DNA of 32,000 nt, taken from NCBI RefSeq assembly GCF_900142225.1, contig NZ_FRAD01000006.1, forward strand, positions 131,548 to 163,547, given 5' to 3'. The stretch comes from Hathewaya proteolytica DSM 3090 (GTDB lineage: Bacteria; Bacillota; Clostridia; Clostridiales; Clostridiaceae). The notes beneath the pieces are model-generated. The model had not been told where the DNA came from. It saw only the letters and a program-made list of their open reading frames with translations, and searched no databases. Position 1 is the first letter of the stretch. Each line of letters opens with the position of its first letter. Positions 4,663 through 21,760 of this stretch are shown piece after piece. The translations under genes and the position numbers were made by a program.

Positions 4663-5400
4663 TTATATGGCCATGCCACCATCTACGCACAACACCTGAC
4701 CTGTTATATACTCAGAGCACTCTTCCGCAAAAAATGATACCGCCCTAGCCACATGATGTGCTTCACCTAATTTGTTTAGCGGAATTTGCTTTAAGATAGC
4801 ATCTTGTATATCCTCTTTTAAAATTGCTGTCATATCAGTCTTTATAAAACCAGGTGCCACCGCATTTACCGTTATATTTCTGCTAGCTAGCTCCTTAGCA
4901 GCTGACTTTGTCATGCCGATTATTCCAGCTTTACTAGCTGAATAATTAATTTGACCTGCATTACCTCTTACACCCACCACGCTGCTGATATTGATGATTC
5001 TGCCATATCTCTGTTTCATCATTATCCTACATACATTTTTAATGCACAAAAACGCTCCTTTAAGGTTGGTATCTATAACCTGGTCAAATTCCTCTTCTGA
5101 CATTCTCATAATCAAGTTATCCCTTGTGATTCCTGCATTATTCACAAGTACATCTATTCTTCCAAAATTCTCTACAACCGCGTCTATCATAGCTTTACAC
5201 TCAGTGTCTACACTTACATTGGCCTTTATAGCCATAGCTTTTACTCCAAATTCCTGGCACTGCTTTACAACTTCCATAGCCTTTTCTTCCCTAGAAGAAT
5301 AGTTTACAACTATATTGAAGCCCTTTCCCGCCAATTCAATGGCTACAGCTTTTCCAATACCTCTGCTTCCGCCAGTAACCACCGCTACTCTACTTTCCAT
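4663..5400 (-). CDS. fabG: 3-oxoacyl-ACP reductase FabG (SDR)
   Basis: TGGSRGIGKA cofactor motif, NNAGITRD, and YSASKAG catalytic motif. Overlaps the fabD stop by 11 nt. Confidence 0.93.
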   Translation of the reverse strand: MESRVAVVTGGSRGIGKAVAIELAGKGFNIVVNYSSREEKAMEVVKQCQEFGVKAMAIKANVSVDTECKAMIDAVVENFGRIDVLVNNAGITRDNLIMRMSEEEFDQVIDTNLKGAFLCIKNVCRIMMKQRYGRIINISSVVGVRGNAGQINYSASKAGIIGMTKSAAKELASRNITVNAVAPGFIKTDMTAILKEDIQDAILKQIPLNKLGEAHHVARAVSFFAEECSEYITGQVLCVDGGMAI

Positions 5401-13350: not shown

Positions 13351-13380
13351 CAAAAAAACCTGCCAATTTACTTTGGCAGG
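13351..13380 (-). terminator. Intrinsic terminator ending the kinase-MBL-small protein unit
   Basis: Minus strand CCTGCCAAagtaaaTTGGCAGG followed by TTTTTTT. It lies 26 nt past the stop at 13406. Confidence 0.75.
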
Positions 13381-13405
13381 AAATTCTTATTTTCTGTTTA
13401 AAATC

Positions 13406-13603
13406 TTATTCTCTTTGCCCTACAGGTGGCATAGAAATGTTATTTTTATTAAAGCTGTGGCTCTTTACAAGGCTCATATGATATGCCTTAATGGCAATGT
13501 AATCCTTTTGACCCTTTTCATCTAAAGTACCCTCTTCCTTTTTTTTCTCTAGCTCTTTCATAACCTCTACTACTTGTTCAAAGCTCATTCTCATGTAATC
13601 CAC
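13406..13603 (-). CDS. Small hypothetical protein (65 aa, charged and helical)
   Basis: Strong SD GGAGAGGAGGG 6 nt before a GTG start. Sits between the MBL gene and a terminator. No recognisable motif. Confidence 0.55.
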   Translation of the reverse strand: MDYMRMSFEQVVEVMKELEKKKEEGTLDEKGQKDYIAIKAYHMSLVKSHSFNKNNISMPPVGQRE

Positions 13604-13656: not shown

Positions 13657-14601
13657 CTACAGATTTATTTCCATGATCTTTTCTCCTGTAATATTGGGAT
13701 CAGTTCTAGAGTACATAAGGTAGCCATCCTTAAGTTCAAGTTTTATAACTCCAGCCTCATTAAGGTATTCAACATAGGATCGCACCATTCTTTGCATAAA
13801 ATTGTATTTGTAACTGTTTTTGATGGGTATATTGAACTTTTCTACTGCAGCCTTTAATATATCCTCTATAGTCATAGAACCTTTTATAACAGAGTACACC
13901 CCTCTTGCCCTGTCCTTATAAAACATAATATTGTCCTCAATGAGTTCATTTATATTATCATAAACACCTTTATGGGCTATTATATACATAGAGTTATGCA
14001 ACTTCTTAAGGCTATTCTTTGTCTTTAGATCTAAAGACAAAATATAAGCGTAGGGCATTTTTGCCCCCTTCATCACATCATAGCTGATAAGAGAATCACC
14101 TATATATGCTACATCGTCTGGTGTAATTATTCCTATTTGAGCTGGACTATGCCCCGGTAGGTGCAAAACATGAAATTTTACGTTAAACATGCTAATACAT
14201 TCATCACGATCAGAAACCATGATGTCCGTTTCAAAGACTGAATCCCTATAATATGTTTCCACCTCAGTGAGGGTTTGCATATTATAATACATCTTAAGAT
14301 TTGAAGAAGAACTGCAAATTAAAGCCTCATAAGCAGGCATAGCAATGATACAACCGTATTTTTCTTTAAAATATCCACAATTGCTAACATGGTCCATGTG
14401 AAAATGGCTACAAATTATACCTTTTATCCTTAATCCCTCTTTAAGCAGTGCTTCCTCTATACCTTCCCGTTCACCCTTAGCCCATCCAGCATCTAACATT
14501 ATAACTTTATCATCATCTATTTTATAAAAAGGAACATAGGTCATTCCTGTATCAATAAAAAATGTATTTCCCTTTGCATTAATAATGTCCGTAACGCCCA
14601 C
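13657..14601 (-). CDS. MBL-fold metallo-hydrolase with a C-terminal winged-helix-like extension
   Basis: HFHMDHVSN (HxHxDH zinc motif), then later HLPGHSP and AHKG. GTG start only 33 nt after the kinase stop, with no terminator between them. Confidence 0.8.
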   Translation of the reverse strand: MGVTDIINAKGNTFFIDTGMTYVPFYKIDDDKVIMLDAGWAKGEREGIEEALLKEGLRIKGIICSHFHMDHVSNCGYFKEKYGCIIAMPAYEALICSSSSNLKMYYNMQTLTEVETYYRDSVFETDIMVSDRDECISMFNVKFHVLHLPGHSPAQIGIITPDDVAYIGDSLISYDVMKGAKMPYAYILSLDLKTKNSLKKLHNSMYIIAHKGVYDNINELIEDNIMFYKDRARGVYSVIKGSMTIEDILKAAVEKFNIPIKNSYKYNFMQRMVRSYVEYLNEAGVIKLELKDGYLMYSRTDPNITGEKIMEINL

Positions 14602-14634: not shown

Positions 14635-15987
14635 TTAAACAATCTTTTTATCTATTTTTTCACTTATATTTGTTCTCATCCAAATTTCTGCTGTAAACAT
14701 ATCCTCGCTACACTCTAAGTTAAAGGTTATATTGTCGTACTCATTAACTATTTTCTTTAAATTGTATAACCCTATTCCTCTGCCGTTTTCCTTTGTAGAA
14801 TAGCCCTTTTGTGTCAACTTATAAATTTCATCCACTCTTTTAACACAACTATTTTGAACTACAAAAACCATACTATTATCTTTTTTTATAATACCAAAAT
14901 TAAGATTTTTATTTATCGTCTTTTGGGCCTCCTCTATGGCATTGTCTAAAAGAATTCCAAACACCCTCATGCAATCAATGTATTCCATGGGGATTTTGTC
15001 CACAGGCTCTGAAATGTCAATAAATAAATTGCATCCATTACTTTGCGCCTTCATGAGTTTAGATATTATTATAGATTTAAATGGTAAAATTTTTATATTT
15101 TTTAATTTTACAAAGAAATCATTTTTCTCCATGTAATGTTGTGTAGGCAATATACTCTCCCTAAAATATGTTTCCAAGCCATCATAATCTCCAGAATCAA
15201 TGTATCCTTCCATGGACATCAGTATATTTTTGTAATCATGCTTAAATTGCCTTATATTTGTATACAACTCTTCCATATACCCTGCATATTCTTCCATTCT
15301 TTGAATCTCTTCATTCTTCCTTTTTATTTCCATTTCCTTCACGGAATACTTGTTGTACATATTGGCGCTGAATACAGCAGATAAAATGGAAAAAAGAAAA
15401 ATCACAAGATTTATGAGATAGTTTTCATCAGCTTTTACTACCATCTTATTTATGATAAAAGATCCTATTATCATAACACCGCAAATAAAAATATTAGCAT
15501 AAACGTATATTAGCCTTACCTTATTTACTTTTTTGCTGTTATCATTAATTTTAGTTTTGCTAAAATCTTTGATGATTTTCCCAAATATATTGGAAAGAAT
15601 AAGTATACCAGCACAGGCACATAAAAAATAAATGGTCAGACTAACCCACCTGTAGTCTCTTAAAATACTCTTTCTAAGCACATTGGATATTAAATTGGAT
15701 ATAATGTCGCTTACTAAAAAAATAATTAAAGTAGATATACTATAAACAATATTGGGTATAATCTTCACAGTTTTATCGTGAAAATAATTATACAAAAATA
15801 GCACAATAGGAATAGAGCATAAATTTATAAATATATCTCTAAATATATACCCTATGATCCAAAAGCACACAAGAGTAATTAAAAGAACTGCGCCTTCCTT
15901 GAAGCTTATCTTCTTATCTTTTAAAATACAAAACCCCATTATTACAAATAAACATGTAACAAAAGAGGTAACTAATACTAATGGCAT
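14635..15987 (-). CDS. AgrC/ComD-type (HPK10) membrane sensor histidine kinase
   Basis: About 6 N-terminal TM helices. H-box RQFKHDYKNIL, N-box ILLDNAIEEA, G-box GRGIGLYNLKKIV (GHKL ATPase). SD AAGGGGGG. Confidence 0.88.
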   Translation of the reverse strand: MPLVLVTSFVTCLFVIMGFCILKDKKISFKEGAVLLITLVCFWIIGYIFRDIFINLCSIPIVLFLYNYFHDKTVKIIPNIVYSISTLIIFLVSDIISNLISNVLRKSILRDYRWVSLTIYFLCACAGILILSNIFGKIIKDFSKTKINDNSKKVNKVRLIYVYANIFICGVMIIGSFIINKMVVKADENYLINLVIFLFSILSAVFSANMYNKYSVKEMEIKRKNEEIQRMEEYAGYMEELYTNIRQFKHDYKNILMSMEGYIDSGDYDGLETYFRESILPTQHYMEKNDFFVKLKNIKILPFKSIIISKLMKAQSNGCNLFIDISEPVDKIPMEYIDCMRVFGILLDNAIEEAQKTINKNLNFGIIKKDNSMVFVVQNSCVKRVDEIYKLTQKGYSTKENGRGIGLYNLKKIVNEYDNITFNLECSEDMFTAEIWMRTNISEKIDKKIV

Positions 15988-16086
15988 GTTTTCCCCCCTT
16001 AATTTGTGTTTTACTTTATATTAATTTATCTAATAACATTATACTATAAACATAGCGTAATTCGGATATGTTTTTTCGCCAAATAG

Positions 16087-16118
16087 AAAAAAAGCGCTGC
16101 AAAATTCTACATTTTACA
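16087..16118 (-). terminator. Weak AU-rich hairpin plus U-run between the ABC-like gene and the kinase gene
   Basis: Minus-strand RNA UGUAAAAU-guaga-AUUUUGCA, then GCGC and UUUUUUU. The stem is short and AU-rich, so termination would be partial at best. Confidence 0.35.
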
Positions 16119-16153: not shown

Positions 16154-16597
16154 TTATTGTATATCTATATCATTGCATATAAATTTTAACTCCTCAATGT
16201 CCGATGAATACACAATAAAATTCTTTTTTTCTTGAGCGCTTATTTCATTTATCAAATTCTTAATCTCTATTCTACCTTGCTGGTCAAGTCCACATATTGG
16301 CTTAACTAATTCAATGGGGGATGTATCATTTAGCAACTTCTCCGCTATGTGAATCTTTACCATCATCTCTGGTGTATATTTAGATAACCGTGTTCTTTTG
16401 AATTTCTCAAGACCTACTATTTTTAATATATGCTCTATATCATAAGCTTTCTTACATTTTAGAAAACAAAATATTTTAAGATTGACATATGTGCTCAGGA
16501 ACCTAATAACAAATGGATACTTCCTATTCTCCATTCTATTCTTAACCTGTTTTCTGTCATTATATATGTAAACCCCTTTTATTATGCCTTGCTCCAC
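16154..16597 (-). CDS. Degenerate ABC-ATPase-like protein (C-terminal two thirds of a nucleotide-binding domain, no Walker A)
   Basis: Collinear with the ABC NBD template but decayed. The signature LSGGQ position reads LSKYTPEM. Walker B LILDEP reads IELVKP. The D-loop GLD is retained. The H-loop SSH reads SSD. No GxxGxGKS/T anywhere. GTG start 5 nt after ACGGAGGTG, overlapping the rSAM stop by 1 nt (TAGTG). Confidence 0.6.
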   Translation of the reverse strand: MEQGIIKGVYIYNDRKQVKNRMENRKYPFVIRFLSTYVNLKIFCFLKCKKAYDIEHILKIVGLEKFKRTRLSKYTPEMMVKIHIAEKLLNDTSPIELVKPICGLDQQGRIEIKNLINEISAQEKKNFIVYSSDIEELKFICNDIDIQ

Positions 16598-17979
16598 TAT
16601 TGCACCTCCGTATATTGCTGGCTACGTCTCATCTTTTTTACAAGTTCTACAATAACTTCTTCTGTAATCCGCTTATGCATCTCACAATTAACTTCACTTT
16701 GTCTATGAATATTTCCAGTTTCAAAATAATTAGATCCTATGCATCCATGACATATGGTATTATTAAAACAATTTTTGCAACGTTCATCGTTAAACTTGCT
16801 AAAATTTATAAGTTTCGTCTTTATTTCATTATATTTTTTCGATAAAAACAAATCATCTTCATAAATATTTCCCATTTTATACTCCTGTTGATCTATGAGC
16901 ATAAAGCAGGGATATACATCACCATTTACGGAAACTGATAGTAAAACCAAACCAGCCTCACATAAATACTTGCAAACTTGCTTTTTCTTCAAAATATTTA
17001 TAACGGTACTTATAAGATCATTAATGGGTATATCACCAGAATTTTCTCCCATGAGATCCGAAACCGATTTTACGAACTCATCTCTATTGGATAAAATAAA
17101 TTCATCATCTTCATTTCCCGAGACCGGAGTTATATGAAAATGTTCTATGCCAAATTCTTCCTTGCCGTATTTTATAATATCCTTTATCTTTACACCCATT
17201 TCTTCATGTACCCTATTATACGTGGACTCTATGCAGGATGGTTCCCCTGTGAATTTTCTTAAACGCATTATATTGTCCCCTACAACTCTTCCCGTTCCTT
17301 TTCCGTTTTTAAAAATCCTCATCTTGTCATTTACACTCTCCGGCCCATCCAGGCTAACAGTGACATGAATATTGTATTTTTTAATGATCTCTAACAACTT
17401 TTCGTCCATAACAGTTCCATTGCTAACCATGCCAAGCTTTGTTTTTTCTTTTTCTTCGTCCTTAAACTTTTCCTGTACATATTTACCAATAACCTCTATT
17501 CCCTGAGGATTTAAAGTGGGTTCCCCTCCAAAGATTTGTATGTTTTCTATATTATCATAATGTCCATAGAAAACATCCAAGGCTTTTATTATGGTATCTT
17601 CACTCATCATACATTCCTCTGAACAGTAGTTTCCTCCATTGGCATAACAATATTTACATGCAAGATTGCACACATTTGTGATGTTGATAACCAGTTTCTT
17701 TAGTATGTTTACTTCTTCTTTTCCGCTGTTAACTACCCCTTTGTCATTTTGTTTCTTATTATGACCCCATCCACAATTACAGTTTTCATCAATAACTTTT
17801 TTTAAAGATTCGTATGATTTATCGTCACAAGAAAATTGTTCCATAGTATGCTCTTTATTAATGCCTTCAATTATATCTTTCATTACATTCCTAGTCAGCT
17901 TATTTATCTCATAGAATCTAAGAGTATCAGGGAAAAAGGCCACTGTTATACCATCTTTTTCTACAAAATGTGGTTTCAA
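16597..17979 (-). CDS. Radical SAM / SPASM-domain peptide-modifying enzyme with an N-terminal RRE-like (PqqD-like) region
   Basis: CX3CX2C cluster in NITNVCNLACKYCYANGG. GGEPTL SAM-binding motif. C-terminal Cys-rich SPASM-type region (CKYLCEAG...VYPCFML...CKNCFNNTICHGCIGSNY...CEMH). The first ~70 aa (ITVAFFPDTLRFYEINKLTRNVMKDIIEG) resemble RiPP recognition elements. TTG start 5 nt after GGAGGGG. Confidence 0.88.
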   Translation of the reverse strand: MKPHFVEKDGITVAFFPDTLRFYEINKLTRNVMKDIIEGINKEHTMEQFSCDDKSYESLKKVIDENCNCGWGHNKKQNDKGVVNSGKEEVNILKKLVINITNVCNLACKYCYANGGNYCSEECMMSEDTIIKALDVFYGHYDNIENIQIFGGEPTLNPQGIEVIGKYVQEKFKDEEKEKTKLGMVSNGTVMDEKLLEIIKKYNIHVTVSLDGPESVNDKMRIFKNGKGTGRVVGDNIMRLRKFTGEPSCIESTYNRVHEEMGVKIKDIIKYGKEEFGIEHFHITPVSGNEDDEFILSNRDEFVKSVSDLMGENSGDIPINDLISTVINILKKKQVCKYLCEAGLVLLSVSVNGDVYPCFMLIDQQEYKMGNIYEDDLFLSKKYNEIKTKLINFSKFNDERCKNCFNNTICHGCIGSNYFETGNIHRQSEVNCEMHKRITEEVIVELVKKMRRSQQYTEVQ

Positions 17980-18044: not shown

Positions 18045-18182
18045 TTATATCTGACACATAATACCTAAGCAGACATTACCACACCAATTTCCGTCACGCC
18101 AACCTCCATCCTTTGACTCCTTCACTAGCTTGTCTACGTCTATTTCTACCATCATAATGTCATTTTCACGTTTCTTATCCAT
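18045..18182 (-). CDS. Unannotated 45-aa RiPP precursor peptide: MDKKRENDIMMVEIDVDKLVKESKDGGWRDGNWCGNVCLGIMCQI
   Basis: Hand-translated from the minus strand. SD AGGAGGTGG 7 nt before the ATG at 18182, TAA stop at 18045-18047. Charged leader ending in GG, hydrophobic C-terminal core with 3 Cys (CX3CX4C) and 2 Trp. Lies 65 nt upstream of the rSAM gene on the same strand. Confidence 0.75.
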   Translation of the reverse strand: MDKKRENDIMMVEIDVDKLVKESKDGGWRDGNWCGNVCLGIMCQI

Positions 18183-18228: not shown

Positions 18229-18296
18229 AAAATAAAAAAGACAACAGATGCATTATTCTCAACCATGCCTATCTTGAGAATACTGTATATGTTGCC
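18229..18296 (-). terminator. Long hairpin plus U-tract (intrinsic terminator/attenuator) in the leader between the LytTR-box promoter and the precursor gene
   Basis: Minus-strand RNA: GGCAACA-uauacag-UAUUCUCAA-(11-nt loop)-UUGAGAAUA-augcauc-UGUUGUC, followed directly by UUUUUUAUUUU. The inner stem is 9 perfect bp and the outer stem is 7 bp. Confidence 0.55.
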
Positions 18297-18358
18297 TTAA
18301 TTTTATCACAATATTTTACTTTATTTTCAATATTATCTTCAAATGTGCTTGTTATATC

Positions 18359-18419
18359 ACAAACGTTTAAATTATATATTTTCACATATCCTAAACGTAG
18401 TTTTTATATCCTAAACGTA
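18359..18419 (-). promoter_or_regulatory. LytTR-type direct repeats plus a -10 box (activator-dependent promoter of the precursor/rSAM operon)
   Basis: Minus strand: tTACGTTTAGgatataaaaacTACGTTTAGgatatgtgaaaataTATAATttaAACGTTTGTg. TACGTTTAG occurs at 18411-18419 and 18391-18399 (20-bp period; the extended 14-nt repeat is TACGTTTAGGATAT). Both copies fit the AgrA-type consensus [TA][AC][CA]GTTN[AG][TG]. TATAAT at 18371-18376 lies 14 nt after the proximal repeat, with no -35 hexamer. A third consensus-fitting site AACGTTTGT is at 18359-18367. Confidence 0.7.
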
Positions 18420-18420
18420 A

Positions 18421-19146
18421 TTACTTTTTCAGACCAGTCAAGCATCTAAAAGAAACAAAACACTGTTCGCCATTTTTCATCATTAAAATCCTTCTTTTTT
18501 TATCCACCTCTATAATATTATTTTTATTCACTATGTAGGCTCTGTGTGATCTATAAAAGTTTTCCGGTAAATTTTCCTCAAACTCTCGCAAAGTCCCGTA
18601 AATCTCAAAAATCCTGTTTTTCTCGTGAACTACAAGCTTATGTGGTGACTGTGATGTTTCAATGAACATAACCTCATCCAACATAATTTTGATTTTTCTA
18701 CCCTCTTGCTCTAACAAAAGCACATTTTCTTTTTTCTCTGTCTTTTCAAAATTATCATTAATGTAAGATAAGGTTTTCTGTAGATTGGCTCGTACATTGT
18801 TAAAATTATCCTTAATAATATAATCAATGGCCTCAACTTTGTATTTAAACGTAAGGAAACTCATTTCGGAATGAGTAGTTAAAAAAATAATATAGCCAAG
18901 AGCATCCCTCTCCCTTATAAGACTGGCAAGCTGAAGTCCATTCACACTGTTGTTTAAATCTATATCCAGAATGTATATCCCCCTACGTACATTGTTTTCC
19001 TCTATGTATTCCAGTACTTGGTCCGGAGTTCTCGCACTGAGTTTTAACTGAAAGTCAAATTCCCATTGTCCTATTAGATCACTTACAATCTTCTCTATTT
19101 TACTGCATTGAATAGAACTGTCTTCACATATTATAACTGAAAGCAT
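18421..19146 (-). CDS. LytTR-family response regulator (AgrA/ComE-like)
   Basis: N-terminal receiver domain (VIICEDSS...IYILDIDL phospho-acceptor Asp context). C-terminal LytTR domain (VMFIETSQSPHKLVVHEKNRIFEIYGTLREFEENLPENFYRSHRAYIVN). The ATG at 19146 has no adjacent SD. Confidence 0.88.
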   Translation of the reverse strand: MLSVIICEDSSIQCSKIEKIVSDLIGQWEFDFQLKLSARTPDQVLEYIEENNVRRGIYILDIDLNNSVNGLQLASLIRERDALGYIIFLTTHSEMSFLTFKYKVEAIDYIIKDNFNNVRANLQKTLSYINDNFEKTEKKENVLLLEQEGRKIKIMLDEVMFIETSQSPHKLVVHEKNRIFEIYGTLREFEENLPENFYRSHRAYIVNKNNIIEVDKKRRILMMKNGEQCFVSFRCLTGLKK

Positions 19147-19276
19147 ACGGTCATGATAAGGAATATCTTTTCGTTATCCCCTAATTCCTCCTCTTCAGAT
19201 TTGTCATATTAATAAGAAATTATCTACATCTATTATACATTAATAATTATATTTTTCAATATATAGTTAAAACAAG

Positions 19277-19363: not shown

Positions 19364-19741
19364 CTATTTTTTTTTATCATCCATTTCATCTAGCATATTT
19401 CTCAATTCTGTTAAATCCTCTTCTCCTATAGCATTGCCATCGTATAAAGATGTAACAAAGCGACTTAGAGAATTTCCAAACATCTTTTTGAAAATGGATT
19501 TTCCTTCTTCCTGAAGATACTTATCCTCATCCACCAAAGGAGAATAATAATTGATTTTACCTTGCTTTTCTTTCTTTATAAATCCTTTATCCTCCAGTCT
19601 AGATAAAAATGATAATACTGTATTGGGTAGGATATCTCTGCTTTTATCTAGCTTAGCTTCTATATCCATTCTTGTAACAGGGCCCTGTGAGTGCCATATT
19701 ATCATCATCAGCTCTAACTCAGAGTCAGGTAACTTCTTCAT
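19364..19741 (-). CDS. BlaI/MecI/CopY-family winged-helix repressor (no cognate BlaR1-type sensor gene adjacent)
   Basis: N-terminus LPDSELELMMIIWHSQGPVTRMDIEAKL...PNTVLSFLSRLEDKGFIKKEKQGKINYYSPLV is the penicillinase-repressor wHTH pattern. Start moved to the ATG at 19741, which follows GGAGGAGGG. Confidence 0.8.
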   Translation of the reverse strand: MKKLPDSELELMMIIWHSQGPVTRMDIEAKLDKSRDILPNTVLSFLSRLEDKGFIKKEKQGKINYYSPLVDEDKYLQEEGKSIFKKMFGNSLSRFVTSLYDGNAIGEEDLTELRNMLDEMDDKKK

Positions 19742-19776
19742 GTACTTCCCTCCTCCTTCAATATTCATTAGACGTT

Positions 19777-19846
19777 TGCCTAACTATATTAACAGTATAT
19801 TGCTTTTTATTTATTATGTCAACAATTATTTTAGGCACATGCCTAA
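19777..19846 (-). promoter_or_regulatory. Promoter of the BlaI-family gene flanked by a TTAGGCA/TGCCTAA dyad and an extra half-site
   Basis: Minus strand: TTAGGCAtgTGCCTAA (19831-19846), then TTGACA (19817-19822), 17-nt spacer, TATACT (19794-19799), then a further TTAGGCA half-site (19777-19783). The 2-nt spacer rules out an RNA hairpin, so a protein-binding dyad is more likely. Confidence 0.5.
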
Positions 19847-21141
19847 TTATACCACCCATTCCACACTTTCAGGTCAGAAAGGTATTGTTCCTCTACTGCA
19901 GGAACATAAAAAACTCCATAAGTATTTAAACCCTTATCCTCTTTCATTGTAGGAATTTCCACATAAATTTTGTAATAGGGCATATAATTTATATCCTTGC
20001 CATTTCTGTATACAAGCTCTGTCTTGCGTATATACTGTTCTCCTGGAAACTTTTCAGGTACTGTAGAGATGTATTTACCTTTGCAAAGGAGTTCCTCAGC
20101 TTTTTCCTTTGTAATAATAGGGTAGTACCCTAGTTTCTCGGAAAGATCAGGTTTATCAATGGTCATGCCAGAGAAATCACCATTTTCATTGTATATAATG
20201 GATATTATATTAAAATTATAGTTTATGATTTTGTCTATATCATTTTCTTTATCATTGTAAAAGTTAAAATTGAACCCACCTAGCTCACCATCATAGGTAT
20301 AATTTCCACCATGTATGTTTGCTTTAGGATTTTTCATAGGAATTATCTTATTGTAAGTATTTTTTATATAATCTTGAGATTTAAGGTGTTTTTCGTAACT
20401 TTCTTGTTTATTACCTCTTATTTTATATTCCTCTGGCAGTTCAAAAGGCTTAACAAATTCTATAGTGGTTTCCACATGGCAATCTACACTTATATTGTAC
20501 TTATCAGATGAAATGGTAGCACTTTTCAGTATATTATAGTCAAGTTCATTAAATTCAATTCCCACTTCTGAATCCCTCTCAACCTTAGAATTTATTTCTT
20601 CTTTATTTGGATGAATTTCTACAGGGTATTTTTCAGTGTCAATACCTAAAAATTCTGCTACTTCATAGGCACGTTTTTTTATGGGTTCTATATCAACCTT
20701 TATGGGCCTTCCGACTTCATCGTAGGAAAGCTTACTTTTAAACACCGGCAACCTAGTGATGTTCATGGATTCATTCCACGGATTCCCGTTTTTTAATTCA
20801 CTAATATCATAGGCCATATAACCCTCATAACCCATACCATCCGTAGAAAAACTACTGAATAAACACAATTTTTCTAGTTGGCCATTTTGATTTTGTTCAT
20901 GGGCTTTATCATCATTATAATCCACTTGAAAACTGTATTTATTACCTTGGTATTTGGGTTTTATTCTAGATTTTAAATAAATTCCTGTACCAACTACAGC
21001 ACACATAATAACAGAAGCCGCCACCACTCCGTATCTTTTCCATGGAATACTATGCTTCATTACAAGATTCTCTTCCTCTGCTTCATTTATGATATCCTCA
21101 CTTAGCATTCCCATGATTTGAAATATCCTTTCCCTCTTCAT
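19843..21141 (-). CDS. Membrane-anchored protein coupled to the sigma factor (putative anti-sigma factor with a large extracytoplasmic domain)
   Basis: About 35 cytoplasmic residues (MKRERIFQIMGMLSEDIINEAEE), one TM segment (YGVVAASVIMCAVVGTGIYL), then about 370 extracytoplasmic residues with no motif I recognise. Its ATG overlaps the sigma gene stop (ATGA). The anti-sigma call rests on position and topology only. Confidence 0.5.
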   Translation of the reverse strand: MKRERIFQIMGMLSEDIINEAEEENLVMKHSIPWKRYGVVAASVIMCAVVGTGIYLKSRIKPKYQGNKYSFQVDYNDDKAHEQNQNGQLEKLCLFSSFSTDGMGYEGYMAYDISELKNGNPWNESMNITRLPVFKSKLSYDEVGRPIKVDIEPIKKRAYEVAEFLGIDTEKYPVEIHPNKEEINSKVERDSEVGIEFNELDYNILKSATISSDKYNISVDCHVETTIEFVKPFELPEEYKIRGNKQESYEKHLKSQDYIKNTYNKIIPMKNPKANIHGGNYTYDGELGGFNFNFYNDKENDIDKIINYNFNIISIIYNENGDFSGMTIDKPDLSEKLGYYPIITKEKAEELLCKGKYISTVPEKFPGEQYIRKTELVYRNGKDINYMPYYKIYVEIPTMKEDKGLNTYGVFYVPAVEEQYLSDLKVWNGWYN

Positions 21142-21698
21142 ATATACACATCCTCCTTCTTCAAAAACACCTTAAGGGCTTTTCTTGTACGAAATAGAGA
21201 TGATAAAACGTTGCTTTTTGAAAGGCTGTATCTTTTTTGGATATCCTCTACACTATCACAATACCAGTACCGTCTAACAAAAATAAGTCTATTATGTTGC
21301 GACTGTTTTCCTAAAAACTCATCTATTAACCTGGCAATTTCTTTTTCCTCTATGCTGCTTTCCACATCATTACTAGAAGGTATACACTGTTCCATCTCTG
21401 TTAATATAAACTCCATGTCACCATTGCCACGTTTTTTTGCTTTTTGTTTTTTATACATATCAAAGGATAAATGCCGTGTAATGCATCCAAGAAAACTTCG
21501 CATAGAATTAGGCCTCTCCTCTGGTATAGAGTTCCATGTGCGGAGATAAGTATCATTAATGCACTCCTGTGAATCTTCATTATCCTTTAAGATATTCATT
21601 GCTATTTTACAAAGATAATTTCCATACTTATTATCCGTTTCAGTTATGGCTTCCTCACACCTCTGCCAGTACAGTTCAACGATTTCTGAATCCTCCAT
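21138..21698 (-). CDS. ECF-type sigma-70 family RNA polymerase sigma factor
   Basis: Region 2-like (IVELYWQRCEEAI...DTYLRTWNSIP) and region 4-like HTH (RLIFVRRYWYCDSVEDIQKRYSLSKSNVLSSLFRTRKALKVFL). Start moved to the ATG at 21698, which follows AAAGGGGTG. Confidence 0.8.
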   Translation of the reverse strand: MEDSEIVELYWQRCEEAITETDNKYGNYLCKIAMNILKDNEDSQECINDTYLRTWNSIPEERPNSMRSFLGCITRHLSFDMYKKQKAKKRGNGDMEFILTEMEQCIPSSNDVESSIEEKEIARLIDEFLGKQSQHNRLIFVRRYWYCDSVEDIQKRYSLSKSNVLSSLFRTRKALKVFLKKEDVYI

Positions 21699-21760
21699 GA
21701 TATCACCCCTTTTCCCTTTCACCTATAAAGACGAATTTTTCAGTAGAAAATTGCATATTA

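Follow-up and report, generated by a model that had tools for sequence, protein, structure and literature searches.

A gene cluster on the minus strand of a 32-kb stretch of Hathewaya proteolytica DNA (hereafter the window, that is, the whole stretch that was analysed) carries two exact copies of a 14-nt sequence between the gene of a LytTR response regulator and that of a small Cys-rich peptide, raising the question of what these repeats do and where transcription towards the peptide gene begins. The initial annotation had proposed that the repeats replace the -35 element of the precursor promoter, with a TATAAT as -10 element and a third site over the predicted start. Our analyses suggested that the exact repeats are very probably docking sites of the adjacent AgrA-like regulator, which would switch on a modified-peptide operon, and that the start site probably lies further downstream than had been proposed.

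Along the minus strand, to which all features of the locus described below belong, the gene order is regulator, repeats, precursor, radical SAM/SPASM protein, a 147-aa protein, histidine kinase and MBL-fold protein. The regulator gene (18421-19146) encodes a 241-aa protein with a receiver and a LytTR domain (Pfam LytTR, 7.4e-21; Response_reg, 7.9e-11) whose best NCBIfam match was AgrA, with 179.7 bits against a cutoff of 400, and the gene at the operon end (14635-15987) encodes a GHKL histidine kinase (Pfam HATPase_c_5) whose best NCBIfam match was AgrC, with 178.5 bits against a cutoff of 500. On these scores, which are the best obtained yet fall below the cutoffs, the two proteins are classified as AgrA/AgrC-like and not as orthologues, and the locus is not an agr locus. 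The regulator gene is preceded by a sigma-A-type promoter (TTGAAA-16-TATAAT, 19232-19259) that matches the consensus at 11 of 12 positions, and neither a scan with the family model described below nor inspection of the sequence revealed any boxes 5' of the regulator gene or of the kinase gene. Further upstream of the regulator (19364-21722) we observed a gene resembling BlaI/penicillinase repressors, a gene for a 432-aa protein with no Pfam match and a gene for an ECF-type sigma factor, whose stop codon overlaps the 432-aa gene; the latter two may form a sigma/anti-sigma pair unrelated to the peptide cluster.

The precursor gene (18045-18182) encodes a peptide of 45 aa (...KDGG/WRDGNWCGNVCLGIMCQI) and has a GGAGG ribosome-binding site at 18197-18193. 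Its CGxxCxGxxC core is conserved among the precursors, the related loci carrying homologous Cys-triad precursors. The neighbouring gene (16597-17979) encodes a peptide maturase with Pfam Radical_SAM and SPASM domains, 100% identical to a Hathewaya proteolytica DSM 3090 protein. The closest NCBIfam models were those of the PapB and SCIFF thioether maturases, both below cutoff (172 vs 340 and 154.6 vs 425, respectively), and CcpM gave 115.8 against a cutoff of 500, so that by its scores the maturase belongs to an unnamed subfamily, below the level of these named equivalogs. A SPASM maturase beside a Cys-rich precursor gives the locus the gene content of a radical-SAM thioether RiPP cluster of the ranthipeptide/sactipeptide type. 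The next gene (16154-16597) encodes a conserved protein of 147 aa that is similar to the C-terminal half of ABC ATPases; its alignment covers only positions 78-195 of the 223 of the profile and it therefore lacks the Walker A region, and the protein is kept in L081, L083 and L084/L165.

Several features of the distal part of the cluster were also recorded. The 166-nt gap ahead of the kinase gene (window positions 15990-16110) holds the promoter-like TAGTATAAT at 16046-16038, and the kinase may thus have its own promoter besides operon read-through; about 12 nt 5' of the TATAAT hexamer in this sequence stands TTACGCTATG, a weak single box-like sequence. The MBL-fold protein gene (13657-14601) is followed by a 65-aa ORF with no Pfam match (13355-13603), after which a clear terminator (cctgccaaagtaaattggcagg and a T-run) marks the end of the cluster, before an acpP/acc/fab operon.

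The repeats themselves consist of the 14-mer TACGTTTAGGATAT, present at 18419-18406 (box 1) and again 20 bp 3' of it at 18399-18386 (box 2), box 1 beginning one base after the TAA stop codon of the regulator gene (18423-18421). The tandem arrangement reported in the initial annotation was therefore confirmed to the letter. Within the boxes, the 9-mer TACGTTTAG occupies 18419-18411 and 18399-18391, with a period of 20 bp and a spacer of 11 nt. Both the exact 9-mer and the exact 14-mer occur only twice on the two strands of the 32 kb, namely in boxes 1 and 2, and over 441 nt the locus shows 100% identity to an independent assembly (Logan SRR33868088, L174), which indicates that the repeats are not an assembly artefact.

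Other elements of the earlier reading proved to be less informative. The 9-mer of the boxes indeed fits the AgrA-type consensus [TA][AC][CA]GTTN[AG][TG] at all positions, as do all three 9-mers put forward; however, the same degenerate consensus (WMMGTTNRK) had 29 matches in the window vs 34.5 expected, and the fit is thus uninformative. TATAAT occurs 87 times in the window vs 69 expected, and 14-mers with up to three mismatches, the level of similarity shown by the third site, occur 13 times vs 4.9 expected. Consensus fit, TATAAT and third-site similarity are therefore without statistical weight as support for the earlier reading. As for the spacer, LytTR regulators recognise pairs of direct repeats, each of 9-11 nt, with 11-13 nt between them (PMC4847170), the spacer of AgrA sites being 12-13 bp (PMC5600425) and the linker of the ComE repeats a 12-mer (PMC4005675). 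The Hathewaya spacer of 11 nt, which had been remarked as shorter than those of AgrA and ComE, differs from the 12 nt found in all relatives and lies at the edge of the published range, but inside it.

Related loci were taken from contigs with maturase homologues 43-58% identical to the Hathewaya protein. In L081/L082, L083, L084 and L165/L166 the gene order is regulator, kinase, intergenic region, precursor, hairpin, maturase and a 144-153-aa protein, and the regulators show 53-63% identity to that of Hathewaya, with a nearly invariant LytTR domain. L167, L169 and L172 represent more distant versions, which carry an M50-like protease and an ABC transporter. In L081-L084, L165-L167, L169 and L172 the kinase gene lies directly 3' of the regulator gene and overlaps it by a few bases; in Hathewaya the perfect boxes stand where these relatives have their kinase gene, and the kinase gene is at the operon end. 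Two broader scans were also performed. Among the matches listed by a scan of a genome collection with the maturase alignment, whose patterns were overly general, just four loci (36-40% identity) proved to be related, with an AgrCA-like pair that was either absent or only distantly similar (25-26% identity, L001 and L004). A scan of metagenomes with the regulator alignment returned 80 LytTR regulators of at most 48% identity, none adjoining a maturase, and these were therefore unusable as orthologues.

A box of the form TACGTTTAGGAcA was found 5' of each relative's precursor gene and 5' of the L169 maturase gene, with the exception of L172, and a degenerate second copy stands exactly 21 bp 3' of it, leaving a spacer of 12 nt. 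The exception, L172, has the proximal copy only and no recognisable distal box. Eight promoters were compared on this basis (L081, L083, L084/L165, L167, L169 and L172, with two each in L167 and L169). A 75-column full-length matrix built from them was too noisy, its window scores being not significant, and was replaced by a three-block model (distal box, proximal box and -10, with variable spacing) that was trained on the relatives only and run over the whole window on both strands. This model ranked boxes 1-2 first in the 32 kb, with a score of 25.9 vs 10.9 for the runner-up; the score of box 1 against the relatives' distal-box matrix was 12.6. The conservation of the box in orthologous clusters and the first rank of the pair under a model that had not seen it are the principal grounds for regarding the repeats as the cognate operator of this regulator family.

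Some additional boxes and repeats were noticed in the relatives. L169 has a second complete module of box and -10 directly 5' of the maturase gene (4860-5000), and an extra box lies at the maturase stop codon of L084 (7346-7359) and L165 (6101-6114). A box pair on the opposite strand of L170 (4789-4802, minus) faces a divergent regulator-kinase operon and may represent autoregulation. Just 5' of the regulator gene, the two closest relatives have tandem AATAAAG heptamers (L081, 1371-1435, a region that also contains a run of N; L083, about 105-135), and no similar repeats are present in Hathewaya.

The position of the -10 element in the relatives was then considered. A TAnnnT hexamer stands exactly 32 nt after the proximal 9-mer in 7/8 promoters, against a background of 7.5% per position, and the next commonest offset is shared by only 3/8. 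The hexamers at this offset are TATAAT, TGaTAAAAT, TGaTAGAAT, TAATAT and TATTAT, with TATATA in the eighth promoter, and the leader from hexamer to start codon measures about 36-64 nt. If the hexamer occupies -12 to -7, the distal and proximal boxes extend over -74 to -66 and -53 to -45, respectively, and the pair is centred at -59.5. AgrA sites are likewise centred at about -60 in promoters with a suboptimal, over-long spacer (PMC4227749) and stand 5' of the -35 element (PMC5600425). The 32-nt gap and the pair centre near -60 thus suggest that the relatives use an AgrA-like architecture. In none of the eight promoters is the -10 at a short, fixed distance from the box, the best coincidence near 14 nt being 3/8 at offset 15.

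In the Hathewaya locus this architecture could be fitted in more than one way. The TATAAT at 18376-18371 indeed lies exactly 14 nt after the 9-mer of box 2, as had been described, and no TTGACA-like hexamer is present 16-18 nt 5' of it; the interpretation built on these facts, that the boxes replace the -35 element and TATAAT acts as -10, is not supported by the relatives, with their -10 at 32 nt in 7/8 promoters and their pair centre at about -60. Counted from box 2, TAnnnT hexamers stand at offsets 14, 16 and then 55, with none at 17-54, so that the perfect pair is left without a clean -10 of the family type. The sole candidate near the family position is the extended -10 TGaTATAAC (18359-18351), 34 nt after box 2, which has a C at -7, predicts a start at about 18344 and would place the centre of boxes 1-2 at about -61. 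Further downstream, a second extended -10, TGaTAAAAT (18308-18300), predicts a start at about A18293 and is identical to TGATAAAAT at the same position in L081; a -35-like TTGAAA (18330-18325) precedes its TAAAAT hexamer with a spacer of 19 bp, the over-long kind reported for AgrA-dependent promoters (PMC4227749).

This second candidate is accompanied by two weaker box-like sites. Site 3, AACGTTTGTGATAT (18367-18354), contains the 9-mer AACGTTTGT at 18367-18359 and matches boxes 1 and 2 at 11/14 positions, and site 4, ACATTTGAAGATAA (18346-18333), located 21 bp after site 3, is a degenerate proximal box that contains the 9-mer ACATTTGAA at 18346-18338 and matches the proximal box of L083 at 11/14 positions; TGaTAAAAT lies exactly 32 nt after site 4. 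The register of sites 3 and 4 hence reproduces the family geometry exactly, with its 12-nt spacer, 9-mer, 32-nt gap and TGaTAAAAT. In a MAFFT alignment the relatives' distal box was aligned with site 3 (18367) and not with box 1. When the whole 91-nt module was compared without gaps, L081 gave 50 identities, above both the 99.9th percentile of 43 and the window maximum of 47, L083 gave 48 vs a 99.9th percentile of 44, and L084 gave 44 vs 42, tied with another register. These comparisons suggest that site 3 is the counterpart of the relatives' distal box. Of the third 9-mer put forward in the initial annotation, then, the sequence is present but the assignment to the start site was not supported by the whole-module comparison. 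The TATAAT itself falls on an AT-rich stretch, aaaatatataat (aaatatata in L081 and L083), which in these two relatives separates the kinase stop codon from the distal box, and it probably belongs to the AT-rich spacer that preceded the ancestral distal box rather than being a -10. A pair centre near -60 would be obtained in Hathewaya by sites 3-4 with TGaTAAAAT and, roughly, by boxes 1-2 with TGaTATAAC, and not with the proposed TATAAT.

Several observations count against the downstream module. Site 3 reads GTGA vs the invariant A(G/A)GA of the family; the family matrix assigned only 1.8 to site 3 and -0.5 to site 4, vs 12.6 for boxes 1-2; and as a composite the site 3/4 module scored 8.2, only about seventh in the window. 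With a start at 18293, boxes 1-2 would lie at -126 to -98, far for direct activation. The region is so AT-rich that -10-like hexamers abound, and none of the relatives, whose closest maturase is 58% identical, is near enough for fine phylogenetic footprinting.

Between the box sites and the precursor ribosome-binding site we also detected a terminator-like hairpin that the initial annotation had missed. The structure extends over 18298-18229 and consists of 25-nt arms (18298-18274 and 18262-18238), which form an inverted repeat with 84% complementarity, and an 11-nt loop, followed by UUUUUUAUUUU at 18239-18229. Its predicted dG was -20.5 kcal/mol (z -4.06), with 0/200 shuffles as stable. It was identified by a repeat finder and by folding, since a terminator scan with a loop limit of 8 nt did not match it because of its loop of 11 nt. 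The possibility that it is a repeated element was discarded, the hairpin being unique in the window. A 38-codon GTG ORF between boxes and hairpin (18385-18269), considered as a small ORF or precursor remnant, was likewise rejected, showing no resemblance to the precursors. A 15-codon ORF that starts in the hairpin loop (ATG at 18266) and continues across the U-run lacks a usable ribosome-binding site. In L081, L083 and L084 the hairpin is found after the precursor, and in L167, L169 and L172 a terminator lies after the kinase gene, 5' of the boxes. The Hathewaya hairpin, being the first terminator-like structure after the regulator gene, probably ends the regulator's constitutive transcript. 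The start predicted at about A18293, seven bases after TAAAAT, falls within the 5' arm, with the loss of the five basal pairs beside the U-run, and the stem remaining in an RNA that begins there had a dG of -11.3 (z -0.54) and would begin at the first RNA nucleotide. The truncated hairpin with its U-run might still terminate.

The geometry of the initial annotation was weighed against these data. It holds that the boxes overlap and replace the -35 element in a class II-like manner, centred at about -41, that transcription starts at about 18364 from the TATAAT and that AACGTTTGT serves repression or autoregulation, and we consider it improbable. Sites centred at -41 are standard for other families of activators, no -35 is present, no perfect hexamer other than TATAAT lies close to the perfect boxes, with no TAnnnT available 17-54 nt after box 2, and three of the relatives have a TAnnnT at offset 15. 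However, the distance that is fixed in the relatives is 32 nt, with nothing fixed near 14 nt, and published LytTR sites stand 5' of the -35 with a centre near -60 (PMC5600425, PMC4227749). The hexamer moreover lacks a TG extension, is common in the window, aligns with sequence 5' of the operator in the relatives, and would produce transcripts running from 18364 into the full terminator hairpin.

That same hairpin is the starting point of a somewhat less probable explanation, in which the boxes promote the synthesis of a short RNA (about 70-140 nt) that depends on the regulator and ends at the hairpin (18229-18239), either an RNAIII/VR-RNA-like effector or an attenuated leader that sets precursor expression by read-through. 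LytTR regulators do drive regulatory RNAs such as RNAIII and VR-RNA, a strong hairpin with its U-run separates the precursor gene from all the candidate promoters upstream, and the relatives have their hairpin after the precursor instead. Against it, a search of the hairpin in Rfam returned only spurious plant microRNA matches far below threshold, the segment is not conserved in any related locus, and the interval from the U-run to the ribosome-binding site is too short for the precursor to have a promoter of its own, which implies that precursor expression depends on read-through or on a start within the hairpin. A still more doubtful explanation regards the exact pair as a recent 20-bp tandem duplication, left by removal of the kinase gene from between regulator and promoter, that adds little to a promoter in which only the ancestral sites 3-4 matter. 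The 14-mers are in fact identical whereas all the relatives' proximal boxes are degenerate, their period is 20 vs 21 in the family, and the pair lies exactly where the kinase gene of the relatives is located. Boxes 1-2, however, are much closer to the family consensus than sites 3-4, so that it would be odd if the regulator ignored them, and the 52-bp offset keeps both pairs on one helix face.

We therefore favour, as reasonably probable though far from certain, a model in which boxes 1-2 and the weaker sites 3-4 together constitute an operator/promoter of the precursor operon that works in the manner of AgrA. The phosphorylated AgrA-like LytTR regulator, made constitutively from its own promoter, would bind boxes 1-2 with high affinity and also the weaker sites 3 and 4, located 52 bp downstream on the same helical face, and the four sites would form the operator of the operon for precursor peptide, radical-SAM maturase, ABC-like protein and histidine kinase. 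A regulator dimer on a direct-repeat pair near -60, 5' of a poor -35 with an over-long spacer, would then help RNA polymerase to use an extended -10. The likeliest candidate for this -10 is TGaTAAAAT, with a start near A18293, although we hold even this identification at somewhat below even confidence; TGaTATAAC, with a start near 18344, is a possible but clearly weaker choice, and TATAAT (18376-18371) is the least likely of the three, some other element accounting for what is left.

If transcription starts at 18293, inside the 5' arm of the hairpin, induced transcripts would retain the hairpin in weakened form only and continue into the precursor gene, whereas the constitutive regulator transcript would be stopped there; the induced transcripts may also gain a 5'-terminal stabilising stem. 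As the kinase gene closes the induced operon, its product would become more abundant upon induction, which would establish a positive feedback. Binding, activation, start site and terminator bypass are all features that we infer from the sequence. A more elaborate and rather unlikely version of this model would make the locus an AgrCA-type autoinduction circuit devoid of AgrB/AgrD, in which the radical-SAM cross-linked peptide is the signal, the start inside the regulator's terminator lets induced transcripts escape and the perfect pair nucleates cooperative filling of the weak pair.

Comparison with known systems placed the operator, by its sequence features, among those of the AgrA/ComE type, an ordinary kind of switch. 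The AgrA operators of the Staphylococcus aureus agr P2 and P3 promoters resemble it in having a LytTR regulator and 9-bp direct repeats that fit the same consensus, and they share with the relatives of this locus the 12-nt spacer, the centre near -60, the weaker proximal repeat and the poor -35 with over-long spacer (PMC5600425, PMC4227749). Unlike P2 and P3, the unit recognised here extends to 13-14 nt (TACGTTTAGGAcA), the Hathewaya pair combines an 11-nt spacer with two identical boxes, and the regulator promoter is without boxes. The locus also differs from agrBDCA in that no AgrB or AgrD is present in the window, its only small peptide gene encoding the radical-SAM substrate; no AgrB-family Pfam match was found among the scanned window ORFs of at least 90 aa, which comprised nearly all such ORFs. 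The ComE boxes of Streptococcus pneumoniae and the Pln and Blp promoters similarly have two imperfect 9-bp direct repeats 12 nt apart before peptide/export operons, under the control of an HPK10-type kinase and a LytTR regulator (PMC4005675). In these systems the pheromones are of the unmodified double-glycine type and have a dedicated ABC exporter, whereas here the only peptide gene encodes the substrate of a radical-SAM maturase.

As a clostridial precedent, Clostridium acetobutylicum has a comparable arrangement, in which agrCA is followed by a short intergenic region that confers Agr-dependence on the downstream peptide-modification gene CA_C0082 (PMC10301443). In that organism, however, agrBD is the signal source and a LanM-like protein takes the place of the radical-SAM cluster as target, and the consulted passages define no operator (PMC10301443). 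Pho-box and class II promoters, in which the activator replaces the -35 element, have the architecture assumed by the initial annotation, with direct repeats at a short fixed distance before a good -10 and no -35; they differ from the relatives of this locus, where the fixed distance is 32 nt and none exists near 14 nt. A literature search on this type of cluster or on the H. proteolytica locus returned nothing specific.

Taken alone, the finding of a binding site for a LytTR regulator is an ordinary one. The comparison with the relatives nevertheless provides, for an uncharacterised group of AgrCA-like systems in clostridia that are associated with a radical-SAM peptide maturase, an operator specific to the family (TACGTTTAGGAcA, a 12-nt spacer and 32 nt to the -10), which can be used in the definition of regulons, for instance by searching for TACGTTTAGGAYA pairs 20-21 bp apart, and in inducible reporters, and the corrected promoter model changes the mutations and primers that an experimenter would choose. 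Should the modified peptide prove to be the ligand of the kinase, sensing of the AgrC/HPK10 type would be extended to radical-SAM cross-linked signals.
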